Shown: positions 720 through 28,668, numbered from the stretch's first letter. The stretch: DNA of 32,000 nt from Thermoproteus tenax Kra 1 (GCF_000253055.1 NC_016070.1:960001-992000); one strand, 5' to 3'. Program-made: numbers and translations. The notes: a model not told the origin generated them from the letters alone.

Positions 720-848
720 TCGTTGCCCCCATGCCCGATGGCCCCGCGCCGGAGGCAGCCGGGCTGTCAGCGAAGGCGCAGGCGAGGAGGAGGCCCTTGG
801 GCGCGAGCGGCCGGCTGCAATCAGCGGTGGACGCCTAGGGACAGACGG
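698..848 (+). repeat. Copy A of a ~260-nt GC-rich dispersed element (internally deleted derivative)
   Basis: 721-848 aligns by eye with the reverse complement of 27936-28063 (8 mismatches in 128 nt). 721-791 aligns with 18491-18561 (3 mismatches in 71 nt). The 5' flank ggggctgtttcacagttcttgatcg resembles the 5' end of copy C (ggggctgtttcataccgatcg). About 115 nt present in copies B and C are missing. Confidence 0.85.
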
Positions 849-905
849 GGCGCCTGACCATATAAATATGGTATATACTGGAAAGGGGAAATATATAGCA
901 TTACC

Positions 906-920
906 TCTATAATTTATTTA
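906..920 (+). promoter_or_regulatory. TATA-like box for the thiolase operon (leaderless-type spacing)
   Basis: ctataatttattta is centred ~21 nt upstream of ATG 933 in an AT-rich spacer. Confidence 0.4.
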
Positions 921-932
921 TTGAACATCTTT

Positions 933-2072
933 ATGGTACTGGCCTATCTCGTTGCCGCCGGCATGAGCAAGATAGGCAAGAGGGAGGAGAGCTCGCGGGA
1001 GCTCGTCGAAGAGGCCTTCCGCGAGGTCCTAGAGGTCGTGGATCCGAGGGAGATAGAGGCGGTCTACGTCGGCGTCCAGTCTGAGACGTACGAGCACCAG
1101 ATAATGTACGGCTCCCTCATCGCTGAGGCGCTCGGCCTCCTGCCCAGGGAGGCGTATAGAGTTGAAGCGTGCGCCGCCGCAGGCGCGTTGGCGCTTCATA
1201 ACGCCGTATTGGCGGTCAGATCGGGGCTTGTTGACGTTGCTCTGGCGGTGGGCGTCGAGAAGATGACCGCCAAGAGCACTCAAGAGGTCACAGACGCCCT
1301 CATGGCGGCCAGCGACCTCGTCGACCAGCTCAGCGGAGTGACGATACCTGCCCACTACGCCATGGTGGCGAGGAGGTATATGTACCTCTACGGCGCAACT
1401 GAGGAGGATCTGTGCGCCGTGGCTGTCAAAAACCACAGACACGCTTTAGAAAACCCCAAGGCCCACTTCAGAAAGGCCATAAGCGTGGAAGAGTGCCTCA
1501 GGAGCAAGCCCGTGGCCACTCCGTTGAAGTTGCTCGATTCGGCGCCCATAAGCGACGGAGCGGCACTCGCCGTAGTGGCCTCCGAGAGGGCCGCGAGGAG
1601 GCTGACCGACGCGCCGGTGAAGATATTGGCGTCGACGGTGGCCACGGACACTCTGAGCGTATCCCAGAGGGACGACCTAATCTGGCCCAGGGCAGTGTAC
1701 GAGGCCGCCCAGAGGGCCTACAGACAGTCGGGCCTGGAGCCCTCGAAGATCCAAGTGGCCGAGGTTCATGACGCCTTCACTATAAACGAGATACTCATGT
1801 ACGAGGCCCTGGGATTTGCCGAGAGGGGGAAGGGGTATCTGCTTGCGCGAGAGGGCCAGACCTACATAGGAGGGAAAATACCGGTAAACCCAGATGGCGG
1901 CCTCAAGGCCAGGGGACACCCCATCGGCGCCACGGGCTTAGCCCAGATCTATGAGCTCTACCTACAGCTGACGGGTAGAGCGGGGCGGAGGAACACGGGC
2001 GCCGAGATCGGAATAGCCGTCAACGAGGGCGGCGTCAACTCAACGGCGGTGGTACACATACTGTCGGCATGA
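933..2072 (+). CDS. Thiolase-family acetyl-CoA C-acyltransferase (archaeal, DUF35-partnered type)
   Basis: N-terminus VAAGMSKIGKR, nucleophile-Cys context VEACAAAGALAL, and C-terminal NPDGGLKARGHPIGATG and NEGG motifs. I prefer ATG 933 over the track's TTG 921 because of the TATA spacing. The stop overlaps the next gene (ATGA at 2069-2072). Confidence 0.85.
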   Translation: MVLAYLVAAGMSKIGKREESSRELVEEAFREVLEVVDPREIEAVYVGVQSETYEHQIMYGSLIAEALGLLPREAYRVEACAAAGALALHNAVLAVRSGLVDVALAVGVEKMTAKSTQEVTDALMAASDLVDQLSGVTIPAHYAMVARRYMYLYGATEEDLCAVAVKNHRHALENPKAHFRKAISVEECLRSKPVATPLKLLDSAPISDGAALAVVASERAARRLTDAPVKILASTVATDTLSVSQRDDLIWPRAVYEAAQRAYRQSGLEPSKIQVAEVHDAFTINEILMYEALGFAERGKGYLLAREGQTYIGGKIPVNPDGGLKARGHPIGATGLAQIYELYLQLTGRAGRRNTGAEIGIAVNEGGVNSTAVVHILSA

Positions 2073-3660: not shown

Positions 3661-4801
3661 GTATCCACAGCTGGGGGAGGAGCACGAGCTGGTGAGAAAG
3701 ACGGCTAGGGAGTTCGCCGAGAGGAGGGTGGTGCCGGCCGCCAGAGCTATCGACGAAGGCAACTATCCCAGAGACCTCTTGAGGGAAATGGGCGATCTGG
3801 GACTCCTAGCTCCACATATACCTCAAGAGTTCGGCGGCGCCGGCCTAGACTTCAGAAGCATGGTGATAGTAGTGGAGGAGATAGCTAAGGCGAGCCCCGC
3901 CTTAGCCACGGTAGCGGAGGTGCAGGGCTCCATGATATCCTATAACCTATACCGATACGCTCAGCCCAACGTCAGAGAGAAGTGGTTGGAGGACGTGGCC
4001 AAGGGCCGGAAGATAGTGGCCTTCGCCCTCTCCGAGCCGTGTTGCGGCAGCGATGCTGCGGCTATACAGACGAGGGCCGAGAGGAGGGGCGGAGAGTGGG
4101 TCATTAACGGCGTAAAGCTGTGGATAACCTCGGGCCTATACGCCGACGCCTACCTAGTGGCCGCCAGGACGGGGCCGCCGGAGCTGAGGCATAAGTCCAT
4201 CAGCCTCTTCCTAGTGGAGAGATCGAGATGTATTGAGACATCGCCCATAAAGGTCATGGGAGTCCACGGGACGGGCACCGCCGAGGTCAAATTCAACGAC
4301 TGCGTTGTGGGGGAGGAGGCGCTGGTGGGGAAGCTCAACGAGGGCTTCCAAGTGGTCTTGGACGATTTGAACAACGGAAGGACTTGCGTGGGGGCAATAG
4401 GCTTGGGCATAGCTGAGGCGGCCTTCGCCGAGGCCTACGCCTACTCGAAGAAGAGGACCGCCTTCGGGAGGCCGCTGGCCGAGTTCCAAGTCCTCCAACA
4501 CTACCTCGCCAACGCCTACGTCCAGACAGAAGCCGTGAGGAACGTGGTCTATCTGGCGGCCTTCTACAGAGATGCGGACGATCCGAGCTTCCCCATGTAT
4601 GCCCAGCTGGCCAAAGTGTTGGGCTCTAGACTGGCCGTCGAGACCACCAGAGTCGCCATGCAGATCATGGGGGGCTTCGGCTACTCCACCGAGTCGAGGG
4701 TCGAGATGTTGTATAGAGACGCCAAGGCCACTGAGATCTATGAGGGCGCGAACGAGGTCATATTGAACACGATATATAAATTCTTGGAGAAAGCTCTATA
4801 G
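3653..4801 (+). CDS. Acyl-CoA dehydrogenase (382 aa)
   Basis: FALSEPCCGSDAAA motif, QIMGGFGY, and C-terminal IYEGANEV catalytic-Glu motif. 8-nt overlap with the upstream ACAD gene. Confidence 0.9.
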   Translation: MSKYPQLGEEHELVRKTAREFAERRVVPAARAIDEGNYPRDLLREMGDLGLLAPHIPQEFGGAGLDFRSMVIVVEEIAKASPALATVAEVQGSMISYNLYRYAQPNVREKWLEDVAKGRKIVAFALSEPCCGSDAAAIQTRAERRGGEWVINGVKLWITSGLYADAYLVAARTGPPELRHKSISLFLVERSRCIETSPIKVMGVHGTGTAEVKFNDCVVGEEALVGKLNEGFQVVLDDLNNGRTCVGAIGLGIAEAAFAEAYAYSKKRTAFGRPLAEFQVLQHYLANAYVQTEAVRNVVYLAAFYRDADDPSFPMYAQLAKVLGSRLAVETTRVAMQIMGGFGYSTESRVEMLYRDAKATEIYEGANEVILNTIYKFLEKAL

Positions 4802-5359: not shown

Positions 5360-5766
5360 TACGAATTGTACTTAAATATTAATGAGTTTAGCTTACATAT
5401 GCCTGAGGAGCAGAAAAAGAAGGAGGAGAAAGAGAGCAAGAAAGTTACAGTTCTGCGGTTCTACGAAGGCGGAATAATGTAGTGGAGCTCGCGTAGTGTA
5501 TAATATTTCGTCATTTTATATCAGAACATCACTGGGAGCTCCAATCGCTATTTAAATCGCTTCGCACCGGAACTAAGCTATTAAAACCTAGGCTATTATA
5601 TAGATCACAATAAAGACAATACATAATTATGTTTTTGAAAATTTGTTTTTTCATAATCAATAAAATTATAATTTCGCTAAATAAAATCTCAATTTTACTT
5701 ATTAATAATTTAAAATATATAAAATATAAAATAATAGAAACTATCCTTATGTAAAAAGATAAAAAT

Positions 5767-5800
5767 TAGCAAAAATAATCTATATAAATAATTTTTGCTA
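5767..5800 (+). promoter_or_regulatory. acs promoter: TATA box (5781-5790) flanked by a perfect 10-bp inverted repeat
   Basis: tagcaaaaat (5767-5776) and atttttgcta (5791-5800) are exact reverse complements. The 14-nt spacer aatctatataaata holds the TATA box ~23 nt upstream of ATG 5808. Confidence 0.5.
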
Positions 5801-5807
5801 CATAACT

Positions 5808-17970: not shown

Positions 17971-18333
17971 ATGCCCGAGCTCCTTAAGTCAAAGGCCCAC
18001 GGACTAGTGGTGACAGGCAAGGATCTGCACTACGAGGGCTCGCTCACGTTGGGGCGGGACATAATGGAGGCAACGGGCCTGCTCCCTCTGGAGAGAGTGG
18101 AGGTCTACAATGTCACAAACGGAGCCCGCTTCACGACGTACGTAATACCTGGAGAAGACGGACAAGTGGTGCTCAACGGGGCGGCCGCCAGACTCGGCGA
18201 GGTCGGGGACATATTGATAGTGGCCTCCTACGAGTGCGCCGCCGATCCAACCGGACATGTGGCCACTGTGGCGATCTTTCAGAACAATAGGCTGAAGGAG
18301 ATCAAAAGGGTCTCGCCCCGCGACCTACGCTGA
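17971..18333 (+). CDS. panD: Aspartate 1-decarboxylase, pyruvoyl-dependent (120 aa)
   Basis: MPELLKSKAHGLVVTGKDLHYEGSLTL... aligns along its length with bacterial PanD ([21 protein letters not shown]...VNGAAA...GDIVIIAS). The self-cleavage Gly-Ser sits at codons 18037-18042. The track ORF 17755 is an upstream extension overlapping gdhA. Confidence 0.85.
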   Translation: MPELLKSKAHGLVVTGKDLHYEGSLTLGRDIMEATGLLPLERVEVYNVTNGARFTTYVIPGEDGQVVLNGAAARLGEVGDILIVASYECAADPTGHVATVAIFQNNRLKEIKRVSPRDLR

Positions 18334-18352: not shown

Positions 18353-18561
18353 GGGGCAGTTCTCTTCTTGGTTATCGTTGAGAAAAATTCTGCGTCTTTT
18401 GGCGGCAGGCGGAGGGCTTAAACGCGTGTATCTATGGCGGCAAGGGCAGTACCATGAGGCGCCCGACCGGGGCTGCACCTGGAGGGGGGCCGTTGCCCCC
18501 ATGCCCGATGGCCCCGCGCCGGAGACAGCTGGGCTGTCAGCGAAGGCGCGGGCGAGGAGGA
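18353..18561 (+). repeat. Copy B of the ~260-nt GC-rich element (5' two-thirds)
   Basis: 18381-18529 is identical, base for base, to the reverse complement of 28025-28173 (149 nt, checked by eye in 10-mers). 18530-18561 continues with 4 mismatches in 32 nt. Similarity is lost after ggcgaggagga. Confidence 0.9.
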
Positions 18562-18616
18562 AGTATTTGGGCATGACGTCGACAGCTATAGCCCAACCAA
18601 CGGAGTGTGTGCCACG

Positions 18617-18628
18617 TAAAAATTATAT
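18617..18628 (+). promoter_or_regulatory. TATA-like box for the pilus-module operon
   Basis: taaaaattatat is centred ~27 nt upstream of ATG 18649. This is the only AT-rich patch between repeat copy B and the first pilin-like gene. Confidence 0.45.
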
Positions 18629-18648
18629 GGCCCTTTGTGGTCTCCACC

Positions 18649-19047
18649 ATGTTGGGCATCTCCGAGATAGTCGCCTCCGTCCTCCTTTTGATCATCAGTG
18701 TGGCCTTCGCCGCATTGATAGCGGCGATCTTCTACAACGCCTATCTCCAGGCTCAGACCTCTCTGGCCGCCGAACAGGCCGCGAAATATTGCGAGGCGCG
18801 GATAGTGGCGGTGACGAACTCGAGCGGAGAGGCCTCGATCTGGGTCTACAACATGGGCCAGACGCGTTGCTCCTTCGCCGGCGCCTACGCCCTCGACGCT
18901 CAAGGCGACGTAGTTGCGGCGTCTCCGACCTCGGCCTCCGCCGAGCCGGGGGCTCTCGTGGAGATAAACACAACTCTGCCCTACGGCTACCCAGGCTATA
19001 GAATCGCCACCCCCCAGGGACAGACATTCGACTACTGGGGGGGATGA
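18649..19047 (+). CDS. Small class-III-signal (type IV pilin-like) protein (~132 aa)
   Basis: MLG|ISEIVASVLLLIISVAFAALIAAIFYNAY is a short n-region, Gly, then a long hydrophobic helix as in archaeal pilins. Start 18649 is preferred over the track's 18607 because the TATA box lies inside the longer ORF. The start remains uncertain because there is no basic residue before the Gly. The stop overlaps the next start (ATGA 19044-19047). Confidence 0.65.
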   Translation: MLGISEIVASVLLLIISVAFAALIAAIFYNAYLQAQTSLAAEQAAKYCEARIVAVTNSSGEASIWVYNMGQTRCSFAGAYALDAQGDVVAASPTSASAEPGALVEINTTLPYGYPGYRIATPQGQTFDYWGG

Positions 19048-20987
19048 GGGGCATATCCTCAGTCGCCGCGTTCGCGATCTTCATAGTGGTCATTGTGGTC
19101 TTCATGCTCGCCGTGCTCTACTACTACCAGTTGATCAAACAGGCTACGATCCAGGGAGTACAGTATGTGAGACAGTCCGCCCTGCCTCCCGACCAGGAAG
19201 CGGCCTTGGTATACAACGGCTCTTGTTATCTTCAGGCGGCCGGCCCGAAGTACCCCTTCTCGTACTATTTCTCGGTCTACGCGCCCACGGGGGCCCTCTT
19301 CGTGAGCTCCGCTGTCTCTCCGGCATCTCCCTATCAGTTCAAGATCGCGTGTCCTCCGGGGCCCGGGATGTATAAGTACGTTGGAGTCAGACAGAGCGGG
19401 CAGCTGGCCTACCTCTACGTGTACGTGGGCCCCATCGCCGTTTGGCTCCAGAGCAATGGAACTATATACTTCGTCAAAAGGGTGGGCGACTCGGTCGGCC
19501 TCACGCTCTACCTCAACGCATACGACAACTCCACGGGGTGGGCGCCCGTTCAGTACTCCGTTGCTCTGACGTATAACCCGGGCCTCCTGTCTTGCTCGCC
19601 CCAGAGCCTCTCGGCGGGACCTGCCGCTTTGAGCCCTGGGCAGACCGGCGTGTACAGACTGGGCATCGTTCGGTGCACTGCGAAGTCCTCCTTCACATCC
19701 ACCACTATCGGCGCAGTGATAACGCAGTCCTACGGCGGCTACGCCTGGACTGTATTTGTCCCCGCGGTGGCCCAGTTGATAAACGCGTCGGCCGCCTCAG
19801 CTCCTCCGCCTACGTCGGCCGCCTGCCCCGCGTCCCTCTCCTTCTCCCCCTCGCCGGGCGAAGTCCTAAGCGGCTACAACGAGCTCAACGGCTGGATAGC
19901 CGCCTGGGGAGCCTACGGAGGAGGGGCGGCCGTGGCCGTGAGGCCGGGCGTGCTCGTGCCAGACTCGCTGCAGACAGGTACTGGGCCTTATTACGTCCAG
20001 CTGAAGAGCCAACAGATCGGGACGCTCGCGGTGAGCGGCGCGCCCGCGACTGTTACAGTGTCGGGCTCTATGCCCAGCTTCCTCTCATCGCTGAATATAA
20101 CTATTGGCAGCTCAACCGTCTACTTAAACGGGTCCTCTGCCGCAGTGACCCTCCAGCCCGGCGTCTACCCCGTCTATGTGTCAGTGAGGGTCCAGCCCAA
20201 TGCCTCAATCGCTGGCTCAAACGCCACGCTCTATATCTCGTGTGGCTCAACGCAGATCCCCCTCCTCTTCGAGATCCCGCAGTGGGGCGACTGGGGAGTA
20301 CGAGTGGATATATACTACAACCCCTCAAACCAGTGGGGCAATCAGCCGAATTGGCAGAGCTATCAATACGTAGGCACTTGGTCGGTGGGCTCCGTTTACT
20401 TCTGGCTGTCGAGTCGGCACCAGAACCCCTACGGCTTCGCCGTCTCGCGACCCCCGTATTTCTCTATTGCCGGTTTAGATGACACGGCGCCCAAGTGGGC
20501 CGCGGCGTGGCTCCCGCAGTACTCCCCTGGCAAATGGGATTTATTCGCCCTTAGATATAGAGGCGTACTCTACATCCCCTGGAGCGATGTGAACTTCGGC
20601 GTTTGGCACGACGACGGAGCCTACGTATCCATGTGTGGAGTGACTTTAAACGCGTGGTATCCAACAGCGCCCCGCTTTGATTTCGTCAAGGCTCACTGCA
20701 GTAGCAGCGACGTACCTGTAGAAATCGACTACTTCGAGGCGTACGTAGAATCCGTGTTGATCTTCGTCGTCGGGAAAGGCTCTGAAGCGTATATACCGAC
20801 TATAGACGGCGCTTGGTACTGCCCTAATTTTACTTGGAAATCAGGCCCCTATAGTTATGGCCCTGGTCCGGGGTATTGTAATAGCCTCTGGTACTTCTTA
20901 CCTGCCTCCAGCGGCAATGTACCGTATTTCGTAGTGGGCAAATACACGCCGGGCACTTCGGACGGCGGTGGCACGCCTGCGCCATAA
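19044..20987 (+). CDS. Large class-III-signal protein (647 aa) with PA14-like C-terminal domain; candidate pilus-associated adhesin
   Basis: N-terminus MRG|ISSVAAFAIFIVVIVVFMLAVLYYY. Many N-x-S/T sequons (NGS, NGT, NST, NAS, NIT, NAT, NFT). Region 20292-20770 (WGVRVDIYYNP...FALRYRGVLYIPWSDVNFGVWHDDGAYVSMCGV...VPVEIDYFEAYVESVL) follows the PA14/GLEYA pattern. Confidence 0.7.
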   Translation: MRGISSVAAFAIFIVVIVVFMLAVLYYYQLIKQATIQGVQYVRQSALPPDQEAALVYNGSCYLQAAGPKYPFSYYFSVYAPTGALFVSSAVSPASPYQFKIACPPGPGMYKYVGVRQSGQLAYLYVYVGPIAVWLQSNGTIYFVKRVGDSVGLTLYLNAYDNSTGWAPVQYSVALTYNPGLLSCSPQSLSAGPAALSPGQTGVYRLGIVRCTAKSSFTSTTIGAVITQSYGGYAWTVFVPAVAQLINASAASAPPPTSAACPASLSFSPSPGEVLSGYNELNGWIAAWGAYGGGAAVAVRPGVLVPDSLQTGTGPYYVQLKSQQIGTLAVSGAPATVTVSGSMPSFLSSLNITIGSSTVYLNGSSAAVTLQPGVYPVYVSVRVQPNASIAGSNATLYISCGSTQIPLLFEIPQWGDWGVRVDIYYNPSNQWGNQPNWQSYQYVGTWSVGSVYFWLSSRHQNPYGFAVSRPPYFSIAGLDDTAPKWAAAWLPQYSPGKWDLFALRYRGVLYIPWSDVNFGVWHDDGAYVSMCGVTLNAWYPTAPRFDFVKAHCSSSDVPVEIDYFEAYVESVLIFVVGKGSEAYIPTIDGAWYCPNFTWKSGPYSYGPGPGYCNSLWYFLPASSGNVPYFVVGKYTPGTSDGGGTPAP

Positions 20988-21014
20988 TATTTAAGAATCG
21001 ATATTTGGGAGGCC

Positions 21015-22880
21015 ATGAAGTTTATTTTGTTGGTTCTGGTTGGGGCAGCCCTAGTTTTTGCACAAGTCTACGTCTTCAGCGATGGCTCTGGCTATGCAGT
21101 TTTTTCACATATGGGCTTCGCTGTGTATTCCATGGATGGGCGGCTTCAGTATGTAGGAGGAGCGCCGGCCTATCCTGGGCCCACTTGTATAGCCTTCTAC
21201 TCAGGAGCCGGCGTCTCGATCGTCACCCCTAGGGGCGCCCTCAGGGCCTTCTATCCGCTGAACTTCACCCCCACCCTCATCGCCTCGGACTGCAGAGCGG
21301 TGGTCGCAGTGAACCAGACCGCCGGCGTGTATATAGCCCCAGGGGTCCGGTACTCGTTCTTCCTTCCGTCTCCTCCCTACTCTGTATCTATGTTGAACGG
21401 CACTGCCTACGTGCTCGACATGGACGGCGATGTGATCGTGGCCTCCGCGTCGGGCACAGCTGTGGAGCATATAGGAGGATATCCCGCCGGGACTGTTGCG
21501 AGCCCGGACTGCGTTGTCGCCTCGGTGGTCCGAGGGGATACGCAGTACTTCTACAGAGTCGACGGAGGAGTCCCCCAGCTGCTGGCGACGAGGAGGGCCG
21601 AGGTCGGCCTCGCCTACTCCTTCGCCGTGGGGCCCGGCTGTCGTTTGGCCTACGCCGACGGTAGGAAGGAGACTGCTGTGGCTGTCGACGGGCCCTACGT
21701 CATCTACGGCACATCGACGGGCTATATAGAGGTCTACTACGGCGGACAGCTCGTCTACGAGCGGAAGGTCGGCGGGCCTGTCCTCTCGGTGTCGTCCTCG
21801 GGCTTAAACATAGCGTACGAGACGCCGGAGGGCGTCTTCCCGCTCATCCTCATCAACGAGACCGTCGTGTCGAACTGCGGCAACTGGTCCCTCTTGAGGG
21901 AGGCGGGGACTGCCTATTCTCCGCCCTCGGTCATCGAATTTGGCAACGGCACTAGGTGCGTGCTCTCCTCCAACTACACTGCGTCTGGAGTCGTCTATGC
22001 AAACTATGTGCGCCAGTACTACGTACAGCTGAGCTCCCCCCATCCGATGGCAGCTTGGCTTCCCGCCGGAGCTCAATTGCCCCAGCCGCCGTCTGTTGTG
22101 GAGGGGCTTGTGGAGTTGATCCCACTTGGGTGGCAAATAGACGGCCGCCTGCTCCAACAAACCGCCGTCGAGGGGCCCTTGGCGGCCTCCGCCGTCTACA
22201 GAGTGGTGCCCGCCGTTAACGGGACTCTCGGCAACGGCACAATGTTGCTGGTCAAAGTAGAGACGCCCACTATCGTCTGGCCGCAACAGCCCGCGTACGC
22301 CGTAGAGAGGCTCTACTACGTCACAGTCTCGCCGCCTGGGAACGTCTCGGGGGGCCCGGGCTACTATCCCGCCGGCTCCTACGTGACTATATCCGCCGGA
22401 TCGCCGCAGGCGCCCCCAGGCTGCAGATACACCTTCTCTGGCTGGAGGGGCGTGAACGCGACTGCGCCCACTGCGACAGTGCTTGTGGCGGGGCCCATCT
22501 CGGCTGCGCCTGAGTTCGTTGAGGAGTGCCGCGTCCAGCTCTATACACAGTACGGCTCTGTGGTCAACGCCCCCGAGTGGGCGCCGCTGGGGGCCGTCCT
22601 AACGCCCTCCGTGGAGCCGACGGCGGTATGGGCTCCGTTCCCATTTAGGTACGTCTTCGTCGGCTGGAACATCAACGGGGCGATATCTAGGAGCTTCGCC
22701 GTCTCCGGGCCCGTGAGCGCTACGGCCGTGTGGGTCCTCGATCCGACCCCCCTATCGGCAATCGCGGCCGCCTTGGCCGCCGCAAGCATCGCAGTGTTCC
22801 TCGCGTCGAGGAGGCGCCGCCAGGGGCGCGCCGCACTGTTTAAATTCTACGCAAGATATTTATCAGTACACTATCAGTAG
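21015..22880 (+). CDS. Secreted, C-terminally membrane-anchored 621-aa protein with three InlB-B-repeat-like modules
   Basis: Sec-type signal MKFILLVLVGAALVFAQV. The beta-rich N-terminal half may be a propeller (repeated ...DGDVIVASASG..., ...GYIEVYYGGQLVYE...). Three modules at 22017-22740 have the Y-Y-V-x-h...[FL]-x-G-W pattern. C-terminal TM plus basic tail LSAIAAALAAASIAVFLASRRRRQGR. GGGAGG lies 3 nt upstream of the ATG. Confidence 0.7.
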   Translation: MKFILLVLVGAALVFAQVYVFSDGSGYAVFSHMGFAVYSMDGRLQYVGGAPAYPGPTCIAFYSGAGVSIVTPRGALRAFYPLNFTPTLIASDCRAVVAVNQTAGVYIAPGVRYSFFLPSPPYSVSMLNGTAYVLDMDGDVIVASASGTAVEHIGGYPAGTVASPDCVVASVVRGDTQYFYRVDGGVPQLLATRRAEVGLAYSFAVGPGCRLAYADGRKETAVAVDGPYVIYGTSTGYIEVYYGGQLVYERKVGGPVLSVSSSGLNIAYETPEGVFPLILINETVVSNCGNWSLLREAGTAYSPPSVIEFGNGTRCVLSSNYTASGVVYANYVRQYYVQLSSPHPMAAWLPAGAQLPQPPSVVEGLVELIPLGWQIDGRLLQQTAVEGPLAASAVYRVVPAVNGTLGNGTMLLVKVETPTIVWPQQPAYAVERLYYVTVSPPGNVSGGPGYYPAGSYVTISAGSPQAPPGCRYTFSGWRGVNATAPTATVLVAGPISAAPEFVEECRVQLYTQYGSVVNAPEWAPLGAVLTPSVEPTAVWAPFPFRYVFVGWNINGAISRSFAVSGPVSATAVWVLDPTPLSAIAAALAAASIAVFLASRRRRQGRAALFKFYARYLSVHYQ

Positions 22881-22883
22881 CCC

Positions 22884-23372
22884 ATGAGGACGAGGGGTAT
22901 CGAGCCAATAGTCGCCGCTGTGTTGTTGATAGTGTTGGCGGTCATTGGCGCTGTGTTGCTCTACCTCTGGTTCGCTGGATACGTCTCTGGGACTACCTCG
23001 CAGGCCAACCAGCTCTCGGCCTCAGAGAGGCTCAGCATAGAGGCCGCCAATCTAACTTGGACTTCAGGGAGGGGCGCCTACGCCTATCTCTATATCAGAA
23101 ACATCGGCGGAGTCAACTCTACGCTGTCGACAGCCTATCTGCTCCTCCCCGGCTCCTCCAACCCGCTGTGCACTACGAACACAATTACGGTCTACGCCGG
23201 CCTCAGCACGACGGCGGGACCCAGACAGACGCCTGTTATACCGGTCGGTCAAGACAACTTGGTGTACATAAGCTTCGGGCCGGGCTGCACTGTGACCAGC
23301 GGCTACACCTACGTGGTCAAGCTTGTGACGCAGCAGGGCTCGCAGTTCGCGGTCACAGTGACCGCCAGCTGA
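22884..23372 (+). CDS. Archaeal type IV pilin (162 aa)
   Basis: MRTRG|IEPIVAAVLLIVLAVIGAVLLYLWFAGY is a textbook archaeal class III signal peptide and pilin/flagellin-type N-terminal helix. The C-terminal domain is beta-rich with NLT and NST sequons. Confidence 0.8.
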   Translation: MRTRGIEPIVAAVLLIVLAVIGAVLLYLWFAGYVSGTTSQANQLSASERLSIEAANLTWTSGRGAYAYLYIRNIGGVNSTLSTAYLLLPGSSNPLCTTNTITVYAGLSTTAGPRQTPVIPVGQDNLVYISFGPGCTVTSGYTYVVKLVTQQGSQFAVTVTAS

Positions 23373-23381
23373 ACCCCTAAT

Positions 23382-24140
23382 ATGAATATTTTTTTCCAAT
23401 GGCTCCCTCTCATCGTTTTTTCCTCCTCAGCCGCCCTTATAGCTGGCGGCTATCTCCCCTGGAGGAGGGCTGTGTTCAGAGCCAAGCTGGAGGGACAGAT
23501 CCCAGAGACCCTCCGGGCCCTCGCCGACTCGGTGGCCGGAGGCATGGACCTGAGGTCCGCCTTCGAGGTTGTGGCTTCGCTGGGCCTCAGGCCGATGGCC
23601 GACGTAGCGAGGAGGATCCTCGCCCTCACGGCCGTAGGGGGCATGACTGTGGAGGAGGCATTGTGGCAAGTGGCCGAGGGGACGGGCTCGGCGAACTTCA
23701 AGAGGTTCGCGTTGATAGTGGCGGAGGCCGCCCGCAGCGGCGCCAAGTTGCCCGAGGTTTTGGGGACTGCGGCGAGGACGTTCGCCACAGTCGTCGAGTT
23801 CAGACGCGACATTGAGTCCCAGCTGAGGCCCTACGTGGCCTTGTATTACGCACTGATAGTCACGTTCGTAGTCCTCGCCGATGTCCTCGTCTACTTCCTC
23901 CTGCCGCAGTTGGCCCAACTTGCCTCTAGAGTGTCAGGCCCAGGGATAACTCCAGCGGTGATAAACAGGGAGGACGCCATAGTCGTGCTCTACTTCTCAG
24001 CGCTTGCGCAAGCTCTGATCGGCGGGCTTATAATCGGGAGGATCGTCTACTTCTCGCCGTCCGCCGGGCTGGTGCACGCGGGCATCGCCTCGGGAGCGGC
24101 CGGGCTGGCTCTGCTTCTGCCCCTATGGGCGAGGTTCTGA
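23382..24140 (+). CDS. T4P platform protein, single T2SSF (TadB/TadC/FlaJ-like) domain (252 aa)
   Basis: One N-terminal TM, a cytoplasmic helical domain (IPETLRALADSVAGGMDLRSAFEVVA...LPEVLGTAARTF) and C-terminal TM helices, the GspF/TadC domain layout. 16-nt overlap with the ATPase gene. Confidence 0.75.
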   Translation: MNIFFQWLPLIVFSSSAALIAGGYLPWRRAVFRAKLEGQIPETLRALADSVAGGMDLRSAFEVVASLGLRPMADVARRILALTAVGGMTVEEALWQVAEGTGSANFKRFALIVAEAARSGAKLPEVLGTAARTFATVVEFRRDIESQLRPYVALYYALIVTFVVLADVLVYFLLPQLAQLASRVSGPGITPAVINREDAIVVLYFSALAQALIGGLIIGRIVYFSPSAGLVHAGIASGAAGLALLLPLWARF

Positions 24141-25516
24141 AGCTCCTAGAGGAGTACGAGGTCGCCCAATATGTCCACGTAATGATATATGTAGACAAAC
24201 ACGGCTTTAGGGCCTACAGGGCCGTGGAGCCGCCCCTTAGCGATGAGGAGCGGGAGCTTCTGTTGAGGCTTAAACGCGCGATCCAGAACGTAGGCGATGT
24301 GAAAGACGGCATATTGAAGCTCACAAGGGAGCGCAGAGAGGAATATCTGGCGCAGCTCGTGGACAGAGCCGCGCGAGAGTTCAAACTGAACGTGGAGGAG
24401 GAGAGGAGGGGGAAAATAATGTATTATCTGAGGCGTGATCTGTTGGGCTACGGCGTGTTGGATCCGCTAGTGAGAGACCCCTTCGTGGAGGATATACATT
24501 TCGACGGGCCCGGCGTGCCGATCTATGTGTGGCACAGCCGCTGGGAGTCTCTGAGGACGGACATAGTCCTAGACCTGGCCGAGGCCGACGCCTATGTCCA
24601 GAGGTTCTCCGCGCTCGTCGGAAAACCTGTGTCATACGCCGACCCCATACTCGAGGGCATGTTGCCGGAGGGCTACCGCCTAGAGTTGGTCGCGCCGCCC
24701 TCCTCGCCCAGAGGTCCCTCGTTCGTCATCAGAAAGTTCTTCGTAGAGCCGATCACCTTAATAGACTTGGTCAAAATGGGCACGATATCCGCCGAGGCTG
24801 TGGCATATCTCTGGCTCATGTTAGACTACGGCAGAAACATAGTCATTCTGGGGCCCACTGGGGCGGGCAAGACCACGTTGTTGAACGCGCTCTTGCACTT
24901 GATACGCCCCGACGCGAAGGTGCTCACTATAGAGGACACTAGGGAGATCAACATAGTCCACGAGCACTGGCAAGCTCTGTTGACCAGGCCCAGCAGATCC
25001 GAGGGCGTTAGGGATGTGTCCGCGTTCGACCTCCTCGCCGTTGCCATGAGGTCTCGCCCAGACTACGTGGTCGTCGGCGAGATCCGCGGCGAGGAGGCCT
25101 ACGTCCTCTTCCAAGCCTTCGGCTCGGGGCACGCCGGCGCCACCACTATGCACGCCGAGACTATAGAGGACGCCGTGAGGCGACTGCTGACTAGGCCCAT
25201 GTCGGTCCCCCCGATGTTGATAGGCCTCGCCCATGTCTTTGTGCGCATAATGAGGGTGAAGATAGGAGAAAGGATAGCGAGGAGAGTCGTGGAAATAGCG
25301 GAGAACATGGGCATAGCGAGGGGCGGGAGGCCGAGGTTGAACTACGTCTTTAGGTGGAGCCCGGAAAAAGACTCCTTGGAGCGAGTCGGGGAGAGCAGAC
25401 ACCTGGAGACTATCTCCCGCGTTAGGTTCGTCCCCATGGACGCGCTTTTAAGGGAGTTCGAGAGAAGGAAGGAGCTGATAGGCGAAATGGTGAAACAAGG
25501 CTTCTCGTCCCCATAA
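24125..25516 (+). CDS. Type IV pilus/secretion ATPase (FlaI/TadA/GspE superfamily, 463 aa)
   Basis: Walker A GPTGAGKTTLLNAL (24851-24877), TIEDTREI Asp box, Walker B/His box region DYVVVGEIRGEEA...GHAGATTMHA. Confidence 0.9.
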   Translation: MGEVLKLLEEYEVAQYVHVMIYVDKHGFRAYRAVEPPLSDEERELLLRLKRAIQNVGDVKDGILKLTRERREEYLAQLVDRAAREFKLNVEEERRGKIMYYLRRDLLGYGVLDPLVRDPFVEDIHFDGPGVPIYVWHSRWESLRTDIVLDLAEADAYVQRFSALVGKPVSYADPILEGMLPEGYRLELVAPPSSPRGPSFVIRKFFVEPITLIDLVKMGTISAEAVAYLWLMLDYGRNIVILGPTGAGKTTLLNALLHLIRPDAKVLTIEDTREINIVHEHWQALLTRPSRSEGVRDVSAFDLLAVAMRSRPDYVVVGEIRGEEAYVLFQAFGSGHAGATTMHAETIEDAVRRLLTRPMSVPPMLIGLAHVFVRIMRVKIGERIARRVVEIAENMGIARGGRPRLNYVFRWSPEKDSLERVGESRHLETISRVRFVPMDALLREFERRKELIGEMVKQGFSSP

Positions 25517-25590
25517 GCTGTGGCGAGGGTCTTCTCTAGCTACAGGGCAGATCCCGAGGGGACTCTGGAGGCAGTGCGGCAGGGGAAAAT

Positions 25591-26376
25591 ATGAGGCTCC
25601 TCTTCGATCTATACAGGCTGAGCGGCCTCGCCTTCTCCTACAGGAGGTATATCGCCGTTCTGATGGGCGCGCCTGCTGCGGTCGGCTTAGCCGTCGGCGC
25701 GGCGGCCTCCCTTTTGATCTCATCGCCGGCCGGCTTGATCTTGGGCGCTGCGGCGGCCCTTATTACCTTCGCAGTTATTCTGGGGTACCCCGTCCACCTT
25801 GTCTCCTCCAGACGCACCCACTTCGAGAACAACTTCCCCTACACTCTGTCGGTCCTATTGCCTCTGTTGACGGCCGGAGTGCCGCTGGGAAGGGCCGTCG
25901 CACGCCTCGCCGAAGTTGAGGACGACAAATACATCGCCCGCGAGCTCTCCCTTGCGGTGAGAGATATTGTGGTCATGGGCTCGAGCCCCTTGGAGGCCTT
26001 GCTGCACAGCGCCGAGAGAGTGCCCAGCGCCAGCTACAGAGAGACTGTGGATATATTAGTTAGGTCGTCTAGAGTCACGGAGAGACTCGACCTAGTTCTT
26101 ATGGCGAGGCTCGACTGGATGTTGAGACAGAAGCAGATCAGGGCGGCCTCGTTGGCGCGATCTATCTCGCTCTTGTTTGAAATATACGCAGTTGCGGCAA
26201 TGTTGTTGCCCATTTTGGTTTTCACGATGGCGCTCGCCTTGAGCCCGCTGGGCGTCCTCCAAGTGGCCGGGCTATCGCTGGATCCCCTCTCCGTGATGAT
26301 CCTAGCTGGCTTGATCTACTCGCCGATAGCGGGGGCCATGTTCTATATCTTGTTCGACGCATCTGCAACTATATGA
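25591..26376 (+). CDS. T4P platform protein, second single T2SSF-like domain (261 aa)
   Basis: N-terminal TM helices, a helical soluble domain (FPYTLSVLLPLLTAGVPLGRAVARLAE...SPLEALLHSAERVP...) and C-terminal TMs. No alternative start exists between the in-frame stop at 25537-25539 and ATG 25591. Confidence 0.7.
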   Translation: MRLLFDLYRLSGLAFSYRRYIAVLMGAPAAVGLAVGAAASLLISSPAGLILGAAAALITFAVILGYPVHLVSSRRTHFENNFPYTLSVLLPLLTAGVPLGRAVARLAEVEDDKYIARELSLAVRDIVVMGSSPLEALLHSAERVPSASYRETVDILVRSSRVTERLDLVLMARLDWMLRQKQIRAASLARSISLLFEIYAVAAMLLPILVFTMALALSPLGVLQVAGLSLDPLSVMILAGLIYSPIAGAMFYILFDASATI

Positions 26377-26460
26377 AAACTTCTTTTAAAGAGAATTTTT
26401 GCTGAAATAAAGTCGATATCTATTGTTATTGATCGTTAAAAATATTAAAATGGGTGACAT

Positions 26461-26751
26461 ATGCTCGCAGTGTGTCTCACCAAAGAGCTCCTCGTGAAGT
26501 TCTACTCCTCCATGGACTTCAGTCTGAGGGCTCTGATCCACTACAAGTCCCTCGCCGCCTTCGGGTACCCCTTCGACAAAATACTCCTGGAGGAGCCGTG
26601 GCGGACCTACGGAGCTCTGAGGGAGCTCCTGGGAGATCACAACGCACAGCTCATCCTCTCAATGATGTCGAAATGGTTGAACAAAAACGGGTGTAGCCTC
26701 GATATAGAAAAATTAAAGAAGTATCTAAGTGATAGAGGGCTATGGACTTGA
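26461..26751 (+). CDS. Hypothetical 96-aa protein, coupled to the KaiC-like ATPase
   Basis: ORF preceded by an AT-rich promoter-like spacer (ttaaaaatattaaaa 26436-26450). 10-nt overlap with the downstream gene. Predicted helical, with no motif I recognise. Confidence 0.5.
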   Translation: MLAVCLTKELLVKFYSSMDFSLRALIHYKSLAAFGYPFDKILLEEPWRTYGALRELLGDHNAQLILSMMSKWLNKNGCSLDIEKLKKYLSDRGLWT

Positions 26752-27869
26752 TGGAGTTAGCAAAACTATCGGGCGTTACTCTGGTCTACGGGCCAGCCGG
26801 CGCGGGCAAGACCACCTTCGCAGCTTGGTATGTGTACGCCCGCTCCGCGCGTGCCCTGTGGATCTCATTGTTTGAGGACGAGGCCACGTTCCGGCGAAAT
26901 ATGGCAAATCTCGGCTACAACTTCGGCGATAGGTTGATCTTCTGGGAGGCGCCGGCGGTGGAGGATCTGGCCGCCGTCTTTGAGCTGATCGCAGACGCTG
27001 TGGCAAAGAATAAGCCCGATATAGTGGTTCTGGACTCTGTGACTGAGCTTATATCGGGCGGCGACGTCCACGCTGGCCTTAGGGCGGTTCACAATCTTAT
27101 CTATAGGCTTATGAAGAGCATTGGAGCCGATGTGGTGATGACGGCGGAGAGACAAGTCGCAGAGAGGCTTATGTACATCGCCGATAATGTGATCGAGCTT
27201 CGATACGATATCTTCCCCTACGGCACTGTGAGGGAGATGGTCGTGAGGAAGATAAGAGGGTCTAAAGCCGGCTACGCGTTGCCCTACGCCATAGCTGAGG
27301 GGCTCGGCCTCGTCATCATGAAGCCGCCCTCTCTAAGGCGGGCTGGCGAGGTTCTGAAAACCGGCGTTGTCTGTTTCGATGAAACGTTCGGAGGTCTGGC
27401 GCCTGGAGCTGTGTATGCGCTGATAGGTCCGGTGGGAGCCGGCAAGTCTACGTTGATGTTGAAAGTTGCTGAGGGTCTGAGGAGAGCGGGTAAAAGGGCC
27501 GTCTACCTCAGCTTTTTGGGCGATGCCGATATGTTGAAGAACAGATACGATGTAGAGGCCTACAATGCTCCGTTGGACGTGGAGGAGTTCCTGCTCCAGT
27601 TCTTCTCGCTTGCCGTCAGAGAGCGGGCCGATGCAGTCTTGATAGACGCGATAGACTTAATGGCGCAGTTCTTTGGAAAAGAGGTGTTTTTCACCGTGTT
27701 GCTTCAAATTATAAGAATAGCCAAGGCCTCGGGCGTACCCGTCGTGATCTCCCTCGCTCAAGACTGGAATATAACAAACTTCCTAGATGCAGTAGCATAT
27801 ATCTCCAGCGGCACTATAAAGGCCGTGAAGTCTCCGCTCGGGAGATCGGCTTCTGAGACCAAATGTTAG
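26742..27869 (+). CDS. KaiC/RecA-superfamily ATPase with two P-loop domains (375 aa)
   Basis: Walker A 1 GPAGAGKTT (26790-26816) with Walker B DIVVLDSVT. Walker A 2 GPVGAGKST (27426-27452) with AVLIDAIDL. The short-domain, KaiC/ArlH-like architecture and the position next to a T4P locus support the call. Confidence 0.8.
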   Translation: MDLMELAKLSGVTLVYGPAGAGKTTFAAWYVYARSARALWISLFEDEATFRRNMANLGYNFGDRLIFWEAPAVEDLAAVFELIADAVAKNKPDIVVLDSVTELISGGDVHAGLRAVHNLIYRLMKSIGADVVMTAERQVAERLMYIADNVIELRYDIFPYGTVREMVVRKIRGSKAGYALPYAIAEGLGLVIMKPPSLRRAGEVLKTGVVCFDETFGGLAPGAVYALIGPVGAGKSTLMLKVAEGLRRAGKRAVYLSFLGDADMLKNRYDVEAYNAPLDVEEFLLQFFSLAVRERADAVLIDAIDLMAQFFGKEVFFTVLLQIIRIAKASGVPVVISLAQDWNITNFLDAVAYISSGTIKAVKSPLGRSASETKC

Positions 27870-27935
27870 TCCGCATTCACAGAGATGGACAGCGGGACTA
27901 GGACGGCTTGCGAAAAATAGAGGCGGCTCAGAGAT

Positions 27936-28196
27936 CCGTCTGTCCCTAGGCGCCCACCGCTGATCGCAGCCGGCCACTTGCGCCCAGGGGCCTCCTCCTC
28001 GCCTGCGCCTTCGCCGACGGCCCGGCTGTCTCCGGCGCGGGGCCATCGGGCATGGGGGCAACGGCCCCCCTCCAGGTGCAGCCCCGGTCGGGCGCCTCAT
28101 GGTACTGCCCTTGCCGCCATAGATACACGCGTTTAAGCCCTCCGCCTGCCGCCAAAAGACGCAGAATTTTTCTAGCGATCGGTATGAAACAGCCCC
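27936..28196 (-). repeat. Copy C (longest, apparently full-length) of the ~260-nt GC-rich element
   Basis: Its reverse complement contains everything found in copies A and B: 28025-28173 equals 18381-18529, and 27936-28063 is ~94% identical to 721-848. The track ORFs across it are P/R/G/A-rich in both strands. Confidence 0.9.
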
Positions 28197-28257
28197 GCCT
28201 TAAAGGACAAGGCTCTCGGTTGTAATAAAAGATAATAACTACGCCCCATGTAACAAT

Positions 28258-28668
28258 ATGCCCAAGAGGGCGATCCCCCTAAGGGTCTCCGACGTTATGG
28301 TCAGAGAGGTTGTGACCGCCGGCAAGAATACCCCCTTGAGGGAGGTGGCCAACACCATGTACGAGAAGAGGATCGGCAGCGTCGTGATAACCGACGAGTC
28401 GGGCAGAGTGGCCGGGATAGTGACCGAGCGCGACGTAGTCTACGCGTGCGCCCGCGGCATGTCGCCCGACTCGCCCATATGGATGATCATGACCGAGAGC
28501 CCCATAACGATCGAGCCCGAGGCGCCCCTGCTTGAGGCCGTGGAGAAGATGAGGAATCTAAACGCCAGACACCTCCCAGTGGTGGACAAAGAGGGGAGGC
28601 CCATCGGTATATTGAGCATGCGCGACGTGTTGGACCTCGCCTCCCTATTGATAAAAATAAGGGAATAA
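28258..28668 (+). CDS. CBS-domain pair protein (136 aa)
   Basis: Two CBS units (GIVTERDVVYA, GILSMRDVLDL). TATA-like taataaaagataataa lies ~28 nt upstream. Confidence 0.85.
   Translation: MPKRAIPLRVSDVMVREVVTAGKNTPLREVANTMYEKRIGSVVITDESGRVAGIVTERDVVYACARGMSPDSPIWMIMTESPITIEPEAPLLEAVEKMRNLNARHLPVVDKEGRPIGILSMRDVLDLASLLIKIRE

Follow-up and report, generated by a model that had tools for sequence, protein, structure and literature searches.

An inverted repeat with a perfectly identical 149-nt tract flanks a type IV pilus operon in Thermoproteus tenax Kra 1

Results

Inverted arms around a pilus operon

A stretch of 32,000 nucleotides (nt) from Thermoproteus tenax Kra 1 (GCF_000253055.1, NC_016070.1:960001-992000; numbered from its first letter and referred to here as the window) contains a type IV pilus operon that is bracketed by two inverted copies of a short non-coding repeat. 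By exact string comparison, positions 18381-18529 on the plus strand are the reverse complement of 28025-28173 (i.e., the minus strand) at all 149 positions. Just past this perfect tract, to 18561/27993, there are 4 mismatches in 32 nt. Both of these features had been reported in an initial annotation of the window, and both were reproduced here. A repeat finder delimited the arms as 18381-18572 and 27982-28173 (192 nt; 95% identity), with 9,409 nt between them. Arms of this kind cannot have arisen by chance within 32 kb.

The arms enclose nine co-directional genes (18649-27869), which make up one pilus operon, and nothing else. This too had been claimed in the initial annotation and was confirmed; the exactness of the fit partly follows from the position of the repeat copies in the spacers at the operon boundaries. 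Outside the left arm lies gdh-panD, with panD (aspartate 1-decarboxylase) at 17971-18333 on the plus strand. Outside the right arm lies a CBS-domain gene (28258-28668, plus strand) with an A/T-rich promoter region of its own (28174-28257) that is not part of the repeat, followed by a branched-chain amino-acid ABC transporter. The remaining window is occupied by genes of ordinary metabolism.

Anatomy of the three repeat copies

The repeat unit is GC-rich, non-coding, and approximately 155 to 265 bp long, and the window contains three copies (A, B, and C), all of them intergenic. Copies B and C are oppositely oriented, one on each side of the operon. In a three-copy alignment, copy C was the most complete: an 18-nt left motif (28202-28185) and an 11-nt spacer are followed by a 110-nt segment (28173-28064) and then by a 128-nt core (28063-27936); segment and core together form the right arm, 27936-28173 on the minus strand. 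Copy A (plus strand) has the left motif (691-708; TAGGGAGGGGCTGTTTCA) and the 11-nt spacer, followed directly by the core (721-848). Its motif matches the partner at 28202-28185 (minus strand) at 16 of 18 positions and in the same register, a score that was reached in 0 of 2000 shuffles. Copies A and C are thus distinguished by a clean 110-nt insertion/deletion precisely where the core begins. Copy B, the left arm (18381-18572, plus strand), has the 110-nt segment (18381-18490) and a core truncated at 82 nt (18491-18572), the homology fading toward the pilin promoter and ending 45 nt before a TATA-like box.

Over the core, copy A is 93.75% identical to copy C (721-848; 128 nt), and its homology to copy B is restricted to 721-802 (82 nt; 91.5%). 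The third copy had been noticed in the initial annotation, which placed it at 698-848 with approximately 94-96% identity to either arm; its existence stands, but these figures do not. Also missed was the fact that copy A lacks the segment 18381-18490 / 28064-28173, which is the bulk of the perfect tract. That tract joins the 110-nt segment to the opening 39 nt of the core, and the initial 34 of these do not vary among A, B, and C. There was no further copy of the 110-nt segment within the window. In copy B, the segment has the 5-nt direct repeat CGTTG on both sides, and the left repeat is imperfect in copy C (CGCT versus CGTTG). The left flank of copy B resembles that of copy A only marginally (p = 0.05), and to the left of the perfect tract, B and C are not detectably alike (p = 0.5). 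A T5 run at the outer end of copy C (28167-28171, plus strand) is read in the direction of the pilus operon and is a possible terminator; its mirror image in the left arm is located at 18383-18387 on the minus strand.

Uneven identity between the arms

Divergence between the copies is approximately 6 to 12% outside the identical stretch. The difference between the perfect tract (0 mismatches in 149 nt) and the adjacent sequence (4 in 32 nt) was significant (Fisher p = 8e-4), with the reservation that all of the divergence statistics are drawn from three repeat copies. The probability of 149 straight matches was 2e-9 at the adjacent B-C divergence and, with the lower A-C divergence, 7e-5. The 110-nt segment by itself would be free of mismatches with a probability of 4e-7 to 8e-4; the probability of 0 mismatches in the 39 core nucleotides was 0.03 to 0.08 at the A-C divergence. 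Core positions 35 to 82 exhibited a star-like pattern, with one change specific to A, six to B, and three to C; therefore, B and C are not simply a young pair.

By a hand count, all eight differences between A and C were transitions (G/A or C/T), as were all but one of the B-specific differences. A transition excess would fit deamination-driven mutation in a hyperthermophile, in what is a tiny sample.

Coding potential, RNA signals, and distribution of the repeat

No Rfam family was matched at the gathering score anywhere in the window, and a search of 27850-28300 at E values up to 10 returned chance-level matches only; ARAGORN detected no tRNA or tmRNA. On these nulls, a known RNA family or a tRNA-derived element was rejected. 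Folding of the repeat was no better than that of shuffled sequences on either strand (z = 0.01 and 0.59), and no compensatory pairs were present in the three-copy alignment, which has low power with three sequences. With z-scores of approximately 0 and no covariation, a stable RNA or DNA structure was also rejected.

One frame is open through copy C, and the source genome has a call of a 69-amino-acid (69-aa) hypothetical open reading frame (ORF) there (P0240; 28154-27948, minus strand) that lies entirely inside the copy. A phmmer search against 1.84 billion representative proteins returned this call as the single match. A decayed protein gene was rejected on the same grounds (i.e., no homologue beyond the source genome's own call), and the ORF call is probably spurious. 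Hand-counted A-C substitutions in the best small ORF were four synonymous and four non-synonymous, which is uninformative.

Searches of genome, metagenome, and viral contig collections with a core 20/21-mer gave only chance matches of 21 to 27 nt in unrelated high-GC bacteria; as genomes and metagenomes were scanned with the core pattern only, these scans are no test of the 110-nt segment. The element had no blastn match among phages and plasmids and was not found in five related Thermoproteus loci (L002-L005 and L021). Inspection for terminal inverted repeats, both in the 110-nt segment and in the complete element, gave 6 of 12 bases as the best match between ends, and no direct duplication was observed outside the B...C pair. 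According to the T. tenax Kra1 genome paper, three putative type IV pilus operons are present, transposase genes are very few, and only seven repeats exceed 300 bp (PMC3189178); the present repeat is below that 300-bp threshold. Judging from these sequence searches, it is apparently a low-copy non-coding repeat private to the lineage.

The initial annotation had allowed that the element might be scattered randomly at high copy number, so that the flanking would be coincidental. With three copies in 32 kb and only chance occurrences of the core pattern elsewhere, it does not appear to be a high-copy element, but the third copy does lie at an unrelated locus.

The bracketed pilus module and its relatives

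A TATA-like A/T-rich box (taaaaattatat; 18617-18628, plus strand) lies 21 to 32 nt upstream of the first pilin ATG (18649), a spacing that fits an archaeal TATA box. The nine genes that follow are all on the plus strand. Pilin 1 (18649-19047; 132 aa) has a weak Pilin_N match (E = 0.0017, below Pfam's cut-off). It is followed by a large secreted or membrane protein without a Pfam match (19044-20987; 647 aa) and a large protein with an N-terminal signal-like and a C-terminal hydrophobic segment (21015-22880; 621 aa). Pilin 2 (22884-23372; 162 aa) has an N-terminal hydrophobic helix, is weakly similar to pilin 1, and has no Pilin_N match. The export machinery is represented by two TadC-like membrane proteins (23382-24140, T2SSF, E = 1.8e-12; 25591-26376, T2SSF, E = 1.4e-13) and, between them, a type IV pilus secretion ATPase (24125-25516; T2SSE, E = 1.3e-31). 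A small ORF (26461-26751; 96 aa) overlaps the start of the last gene, a KaiC/RAD55-like ATPase (26742-27869; KaiC, E = 2.5e-27).

A survey of archaeal type IV pilus loci describes a Thermoproteales subclade 4B comprising a secretion ATPase, pairs of TadC-like and PilA-type pilin genes, a KaiC-like ATPase, and a small partner protein (Makarova et al. 2016, PMC4858521). The module in the window has this gene content: T2SSE, two T2SSF, and KaiC are supported by Pfam, the pilins more weakly, and the small ORF by its conserved place beside KaiC. By gene content rather than by ATPase phylogeny, the module matches a subclade-4B type IV pilus operon.

Orthologues of all nine genes are present in another Thermoproteus (GCA_002497345.1; locus L002) in a different neighbourhood, and the proteins are 51 to 78% identical. 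Among them, pilin 1 is 59% identical to a 135-aa gene product, the two large proteins are 51% and 64% identical to their orthologues, and pilin 2 is 73% identical to a 165-aa gene product. No inverted repeats flank the orthologous module in L002. Relative to the window (18649-23372), the first three genes in L002 (pilin, 630 aa, and 682 aa; L002:1793-6714) are inverted in place and stand head-to-head with the second pilin gene, the divergent starts being only 44 nt apart. Therefore, an internal inversion of the module occurred in one of the two lineages.

Two inverted 34-nt matches resembling the 3' half of a tRNA (GGGTTCAAA...) lie just downstream of the KaiC-like gene in L002 (11230-11263 and 14302-14335), with approximately 3 kb between them. 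In two further Thermoproteus loci (L005:9819-11116 and L003:425-1815), a KaiC-like gene and its small partner ORF occur without preceding pilus genes in the available sequence and adjoin genes for an ammonium transporter, PII, and NAD synthase. The 94-aa gene before KaiC in L003 is 67% identical to the 96-aa ORF of the window. On sequence evidence, the KaiC pair appears to be a separable module. Gene order around panD was also considered as evidence and rejected as uninformative, since it is not conserved even in Pyrobaculum neutrophilum, in which the panD neighbourhood is entirely different.

The locus of copy A and a sister strain

Copy A is located between a CBS gene (288-719) and a thiolase gene with its ATG at 934. 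A related locus (L018) has the same gene order as the window (i.e., PEP carboxylase, CBS, CBS, thiolase, zinc-ribbon protein, ACAD, and ACAD), but its CBS-thiolase spacer is 15 to 33 nt long (4276-4308) compared with 214 nt in the window (720-933). Given the same gene order and the much shorter spacer in L018, copy A is inserted DNA. The window spacer consists of copy A and an A/T-rich, promoter-like stretch, and the thiolase operon in T. tenax has probably gained a promoter of its own. The sequence downstream of copy A was compared for a remnant of the former CBS-thiolase junction, without a significant match (p = 0.14). In another locus (L021:1568-1813), a GC-rich and unrelated spacer of 246 nt occupies the same place behind the CBS orthologue, without homology to the element; the site behind the second CBS gene seems prone to gaining non-coding inserts.

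The homology between A and C starts directly behind a Cys codon, the last conserved one in the CBS protein, whose tail, EGLFHSS, is not present in the orthologues; in copy A, 691-708 encodes EGLFH of this non-conserved C-terminal tail. Because the homology begins after the Cys and the tail is unshared, the left motif is more likely to be element sequence that provided a new C terminus than a piece of the CBS gene that was carried along.

A contig of a sister strain, 98.8% identical to the window, stops exactly 30 nt into the stretch common to the three copies (window position 750). Logan assemblies use k = 31, so that a contig end 30 nt into the repeat corresponds to a branch in the assembly graph, and the sister strain therefore has the core in at least two left contexts. 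The short-read graph contigs of this strain (L006 and L014) end at the repeat or short of it and cannot bridge its 149 nt.

Elsewhere in the window, a 450-nt intergenic stretch (5360-5807) between an ATP-cone gene (minus strand) and an acetyl-CoA synthetase-like gene (plus strand) has a low GC content (0.41 in a 1-kb window, compared with approximately 0.58) and is presumably a divergent promoter region.

Discussion

Origin of the perfect tract

Mismatches between repeats are not erased by a reciprocal crossover, whereas a non-reciprocal exchange does erase them. Given that identity in the perfect tract is well above that in the adjacent homologous sequence (0/149 versus 4/32; p = 8e-4) and that the diverged parts of the copies are star-like, recent conversion, or other recent copying between B and C, is a sound inference; the initial annotation, which had proposed recent gene conversion or recombination between the flanking copies, reasoned well on this point. 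The best explanation, to which we give an even chance, is that copies B and C are old and that a recent non-reciprocal homologous exchange between them (ectopic gene conversion) produced the 149-nt tract, which would then be the footprint of the exchange and no sign of youth of the repeats as a whole. The same homology would make the 9.4-kb operon a substrate for reciprocal recombination, leading to inversion, and such an inversion would be close to silent, as the operon has its own promoter, the arms match, and no dedicated recombinase is encoded nearby.

Inverted repeats that undergo homologous recombination with each other invert the DNA between them. In cultures of Pyrobaculum oguniense, three inversions of 22 to 173 kb were present at 17 to 35%, and two of them were bounded by inverted duplications (Bernick et al. 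2012, PMC3558965). By analogy, inversion of the operon by homologous recombination is mechanistically plausible. The box at 18617-18628 and the pilin ATG at 18649 lie inside the bracket and would travel with the cassette, which supports the expectation in the initial annotation that no phase variation by uncoupling of the promoter would occur. The arms are symmetrical and face inward, so that the same 149 to 192 nt flank each side in both orientations and the same outer T5 run is available for outward transcription. No recombinase, integrase, or transposase domain was detected among the large window ORFs that were scanned against Pfam. Because the promoter is inside the bracket, the immediate flanks are identical, and no recombinase gene is nearby, inversion is predicted to have almost no effect, with changes confined to a longer range (e.g., read-through from gdh-panD or direction relative to replication). 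GC skew was rejected as a mark of recent inversion, since a slight negative skew in the first half of the module follows the unusual makeup of the secreted proteins and shows no shift at the arms.

Several points weigh against conversion followed by potential inversion. Gene conversion is inferred here from one genome. The arms (149 to 192 nt) are much shorter than the gene-length repeats of the P. oguniense inversions, and a lower inversion rate is therefore to be expected. Of the 149 nucleotides in the tract, 34 are invariant in all three copies; most of the signal therefore comes from the 110-nt segment, whose divergence cannot be calibrated against a third copy. Finally, the left edge of the tract is the exact edge of the segment missing from copy A, and conversion would not be expected to halt at this point unless the homology itself ends. 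This last coincidence is what favors the main rival, a young insertion shared by both arms, in which a 110-nt mobile or homing-type insert recently entered the same site (CGTTG) of B and C and the 39 other identical bases just belong to the best-conserved part of the core, its start. The segment is cleanly missing from copy A in the same register relative to the A-C left-flank match, CGTTG is repeated beside it in copy B, only 5 of the 39 extra bases vary at all among the copies, and the lack of mismatches among these 39 has a probability of 0.03 to 0.08 at the A-C divergence. Nevertheless, the segment has no terminal inverted repeats, its direct repeat is imperfect in C, and a deletion from copy A by slippage between short CGTTG repeats fits the 5-nt repeat equally well. 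Nor is there another copy of the segment in the window, and the 276-nt element has no phage or plasmid match and, in its one ORF, no outside protein homologue; the genome as a whole has very few transposase genes (PMC3189178). Two independent hits at the same site would be needed, and the spread would in practice proceed by gene conversion anyway. We therefore regard a young insertion as unlikely. Somewhat less probable again is a by-product of rearrangement, in which the event that placed or turned the operon (break repair that copied the other arm, or a duplicative inversion) made part of B from C, so that the perfect tract is the young part of a mosaic repeat. Copy B does look mosaic, since its left 149 nt equal C, its core positions 45 and 49 agree with A against C, and its homology is lost at core position 82; in the L002 module, moreover, one breakpoint of the in-place inversion is where copy B now sits. 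Yet the mosaic rests on few informative sites, the other breakpoint of the historical inversion (22880-22884) has no repeat, L002 lacks the flanking repeats, and the weak likeness of the left flanks of B and A (p = 0.05) suggests that B was once a full old copy. Selection, finally, could have kept the tract identical if the operon required it on each side as a functional RNA, a promoter, or a protein-binding element, and the A5/T5 run at the outer end (a possible TATA-like box inwards or terminator outwards) and the invariance of the initial 34 core nucleotides are compatible with this. Such an explanation is highly improbable, because absolute identity over 149 nt beside 12% divergence rarely results from selection, the segment is wholly missing from copy A, and there was no Rfam match, excess folding stability, or covariation.

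Two other proposals concern the role of the bracket rather than the tract. Surface structures are the classic targets of bacterial inversion switches, and here inverted repeats bracket exactly one surface-structure operon, so that a programmed, phase-variable element that turns the pilus on or off or changes its regulation might be suspected. We give this very little credence: the promoter-like box is inside the bracket, the symmetrical arms present the same immediate flanks in both orientations, no recombinase gene is found among the annotated window ORFs, the arms (192 nt) are far longer than the sites of site-specific invertases, and a third copy occurs at an unrelated locus. Equally remote is the suggestion, also raised in the initial annotation, that the repeats mark the two ends of a horizontally moved pilus island, either integrated or built like a composite transposon. 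The bracket does contain the module and nothing else, the neighbourhoods of the module differ between T. tenax and L002, and horizontal transfer of type IV pilus loci among archaea is described in the survey cited above (Makarova et al. 2016, PMC4858521). Against this, neither a transposase nor an integrase was detected, a tRNA target is missing, and no direct duplication lies outside the arms; the element lacks terminal inverted repeats; the repeats are inverted and not direct, as att-type repeats would be; and the GC content of the module (0.52 to 0.64) is within the range of the rest of the window. The element was not found in the genome, metagenome, viral, phage, or plasmid collections searched, and copy A, an insertion relative to L018, sits beside unrelated metabolic genes. 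Comparison of synteny, which the initial annotation had proposed as a check, found the orthologous L002 module without flanking repeat copies, and as gene order is poorly conserved in the group generally, its different neighbourhood is weak evidence. The island idea thus received no support.

Significance

On the reading of ectopic gene conversion between B and C, the locus reflects ordinary genome dynamics, i.e., a low-copy repeat with a converted tract and a potentially invertible segment, probably neutral in effect. The feature is real, and the recombination inference is reasonable. Its present value is as a record of a low-copy, apparently lineage-private repeat and in the exposure of a likely spurious 69-aa ORF; assemblies of the region can also be mis-oriented, and knowledge of archaeal pili is unchanged. 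If the cassette does invert, the structural heterogeneity described at the culture level in Pyrobaculum would be extended to a short non-coding repeat and a pilus operon, and the locus would provide a PCR-testable system for ectopic recombination and gene conversion in a hyperthermophile at approximately 86 to 90 °C. Very unlikely, although of greater consequence, would be a cassette that flips naturally through host recombination with changed expression (read-through from gdh-panD versus head-on transcription), a first case among archaea of surface-structure variation through inversion, or a 110-nt segment that is a new small archaeal mobile insert homing into a host repeat.

Comparison with known systems

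The closest parallel is with P. oguniense, a member of the same Pyrobaculum-Thermoproteus group, in which inverted duplications bound segments of approximately 10 to 170 kb, host homologous recombination is presumed to be responsible, and the physiological role is unclear, as it is in the window (PMC3558965). Both orientations were observed there by deep sequencing (17 to 35%), whereas inversion of the cassette in the window is a predicted possibility. The P. oguniense repeats are duplicated genes (e.g., the glutamate dehydrogenase gene), in contrast to the 192-nt non-coding arms with 149 identical bases described here.

Ectopic gene conversion is well known between other repeats, such as the duplicate tuf genes of Salmonella and the inverted repeats of chloroplasts. 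As in the window, a perfect tract lies inside diverged paralogous sequence, and the same homology allows inversion; these repeats, however, are functional genes kept alike partly by selection, whereas the repeat in the window is non-coding and has no detectable function. Bacterial inversion switches (fim, hin, and the invertons of Bacteroides or Clostridioides) have arms of approximately 10 to 40 bp and a dedicated recombinase, and inversion there shifts a promoter or a coding end with respect to a gene that stays in place. They share with the window the flanking of surface-structure DNA by inverted repeats and differ from it in that the window has long arms, shows no recombinase gene close by, and keeps the promoter attached to the operon. 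Miniature inverted-repeat transposable elements and composite transposons are comparable in that short non-coding copies lie between genes, an inverted pair surrounds a block of genes, and a 5-nt direct repeat adjoins the segment in copy B; unlike them, the present repeat has no terminal inverted repeats and no partner transposase, and its three copies all lie within 28 kb, with none found in other genomes. The likeness to the Thermoproteales subclade-4B loci is one of cargo and not of repeats: the module in the window adds two large secreted proteins, and flanking repeats are not mentioned in the survey that described the subclade, as read here (PMC4858521).

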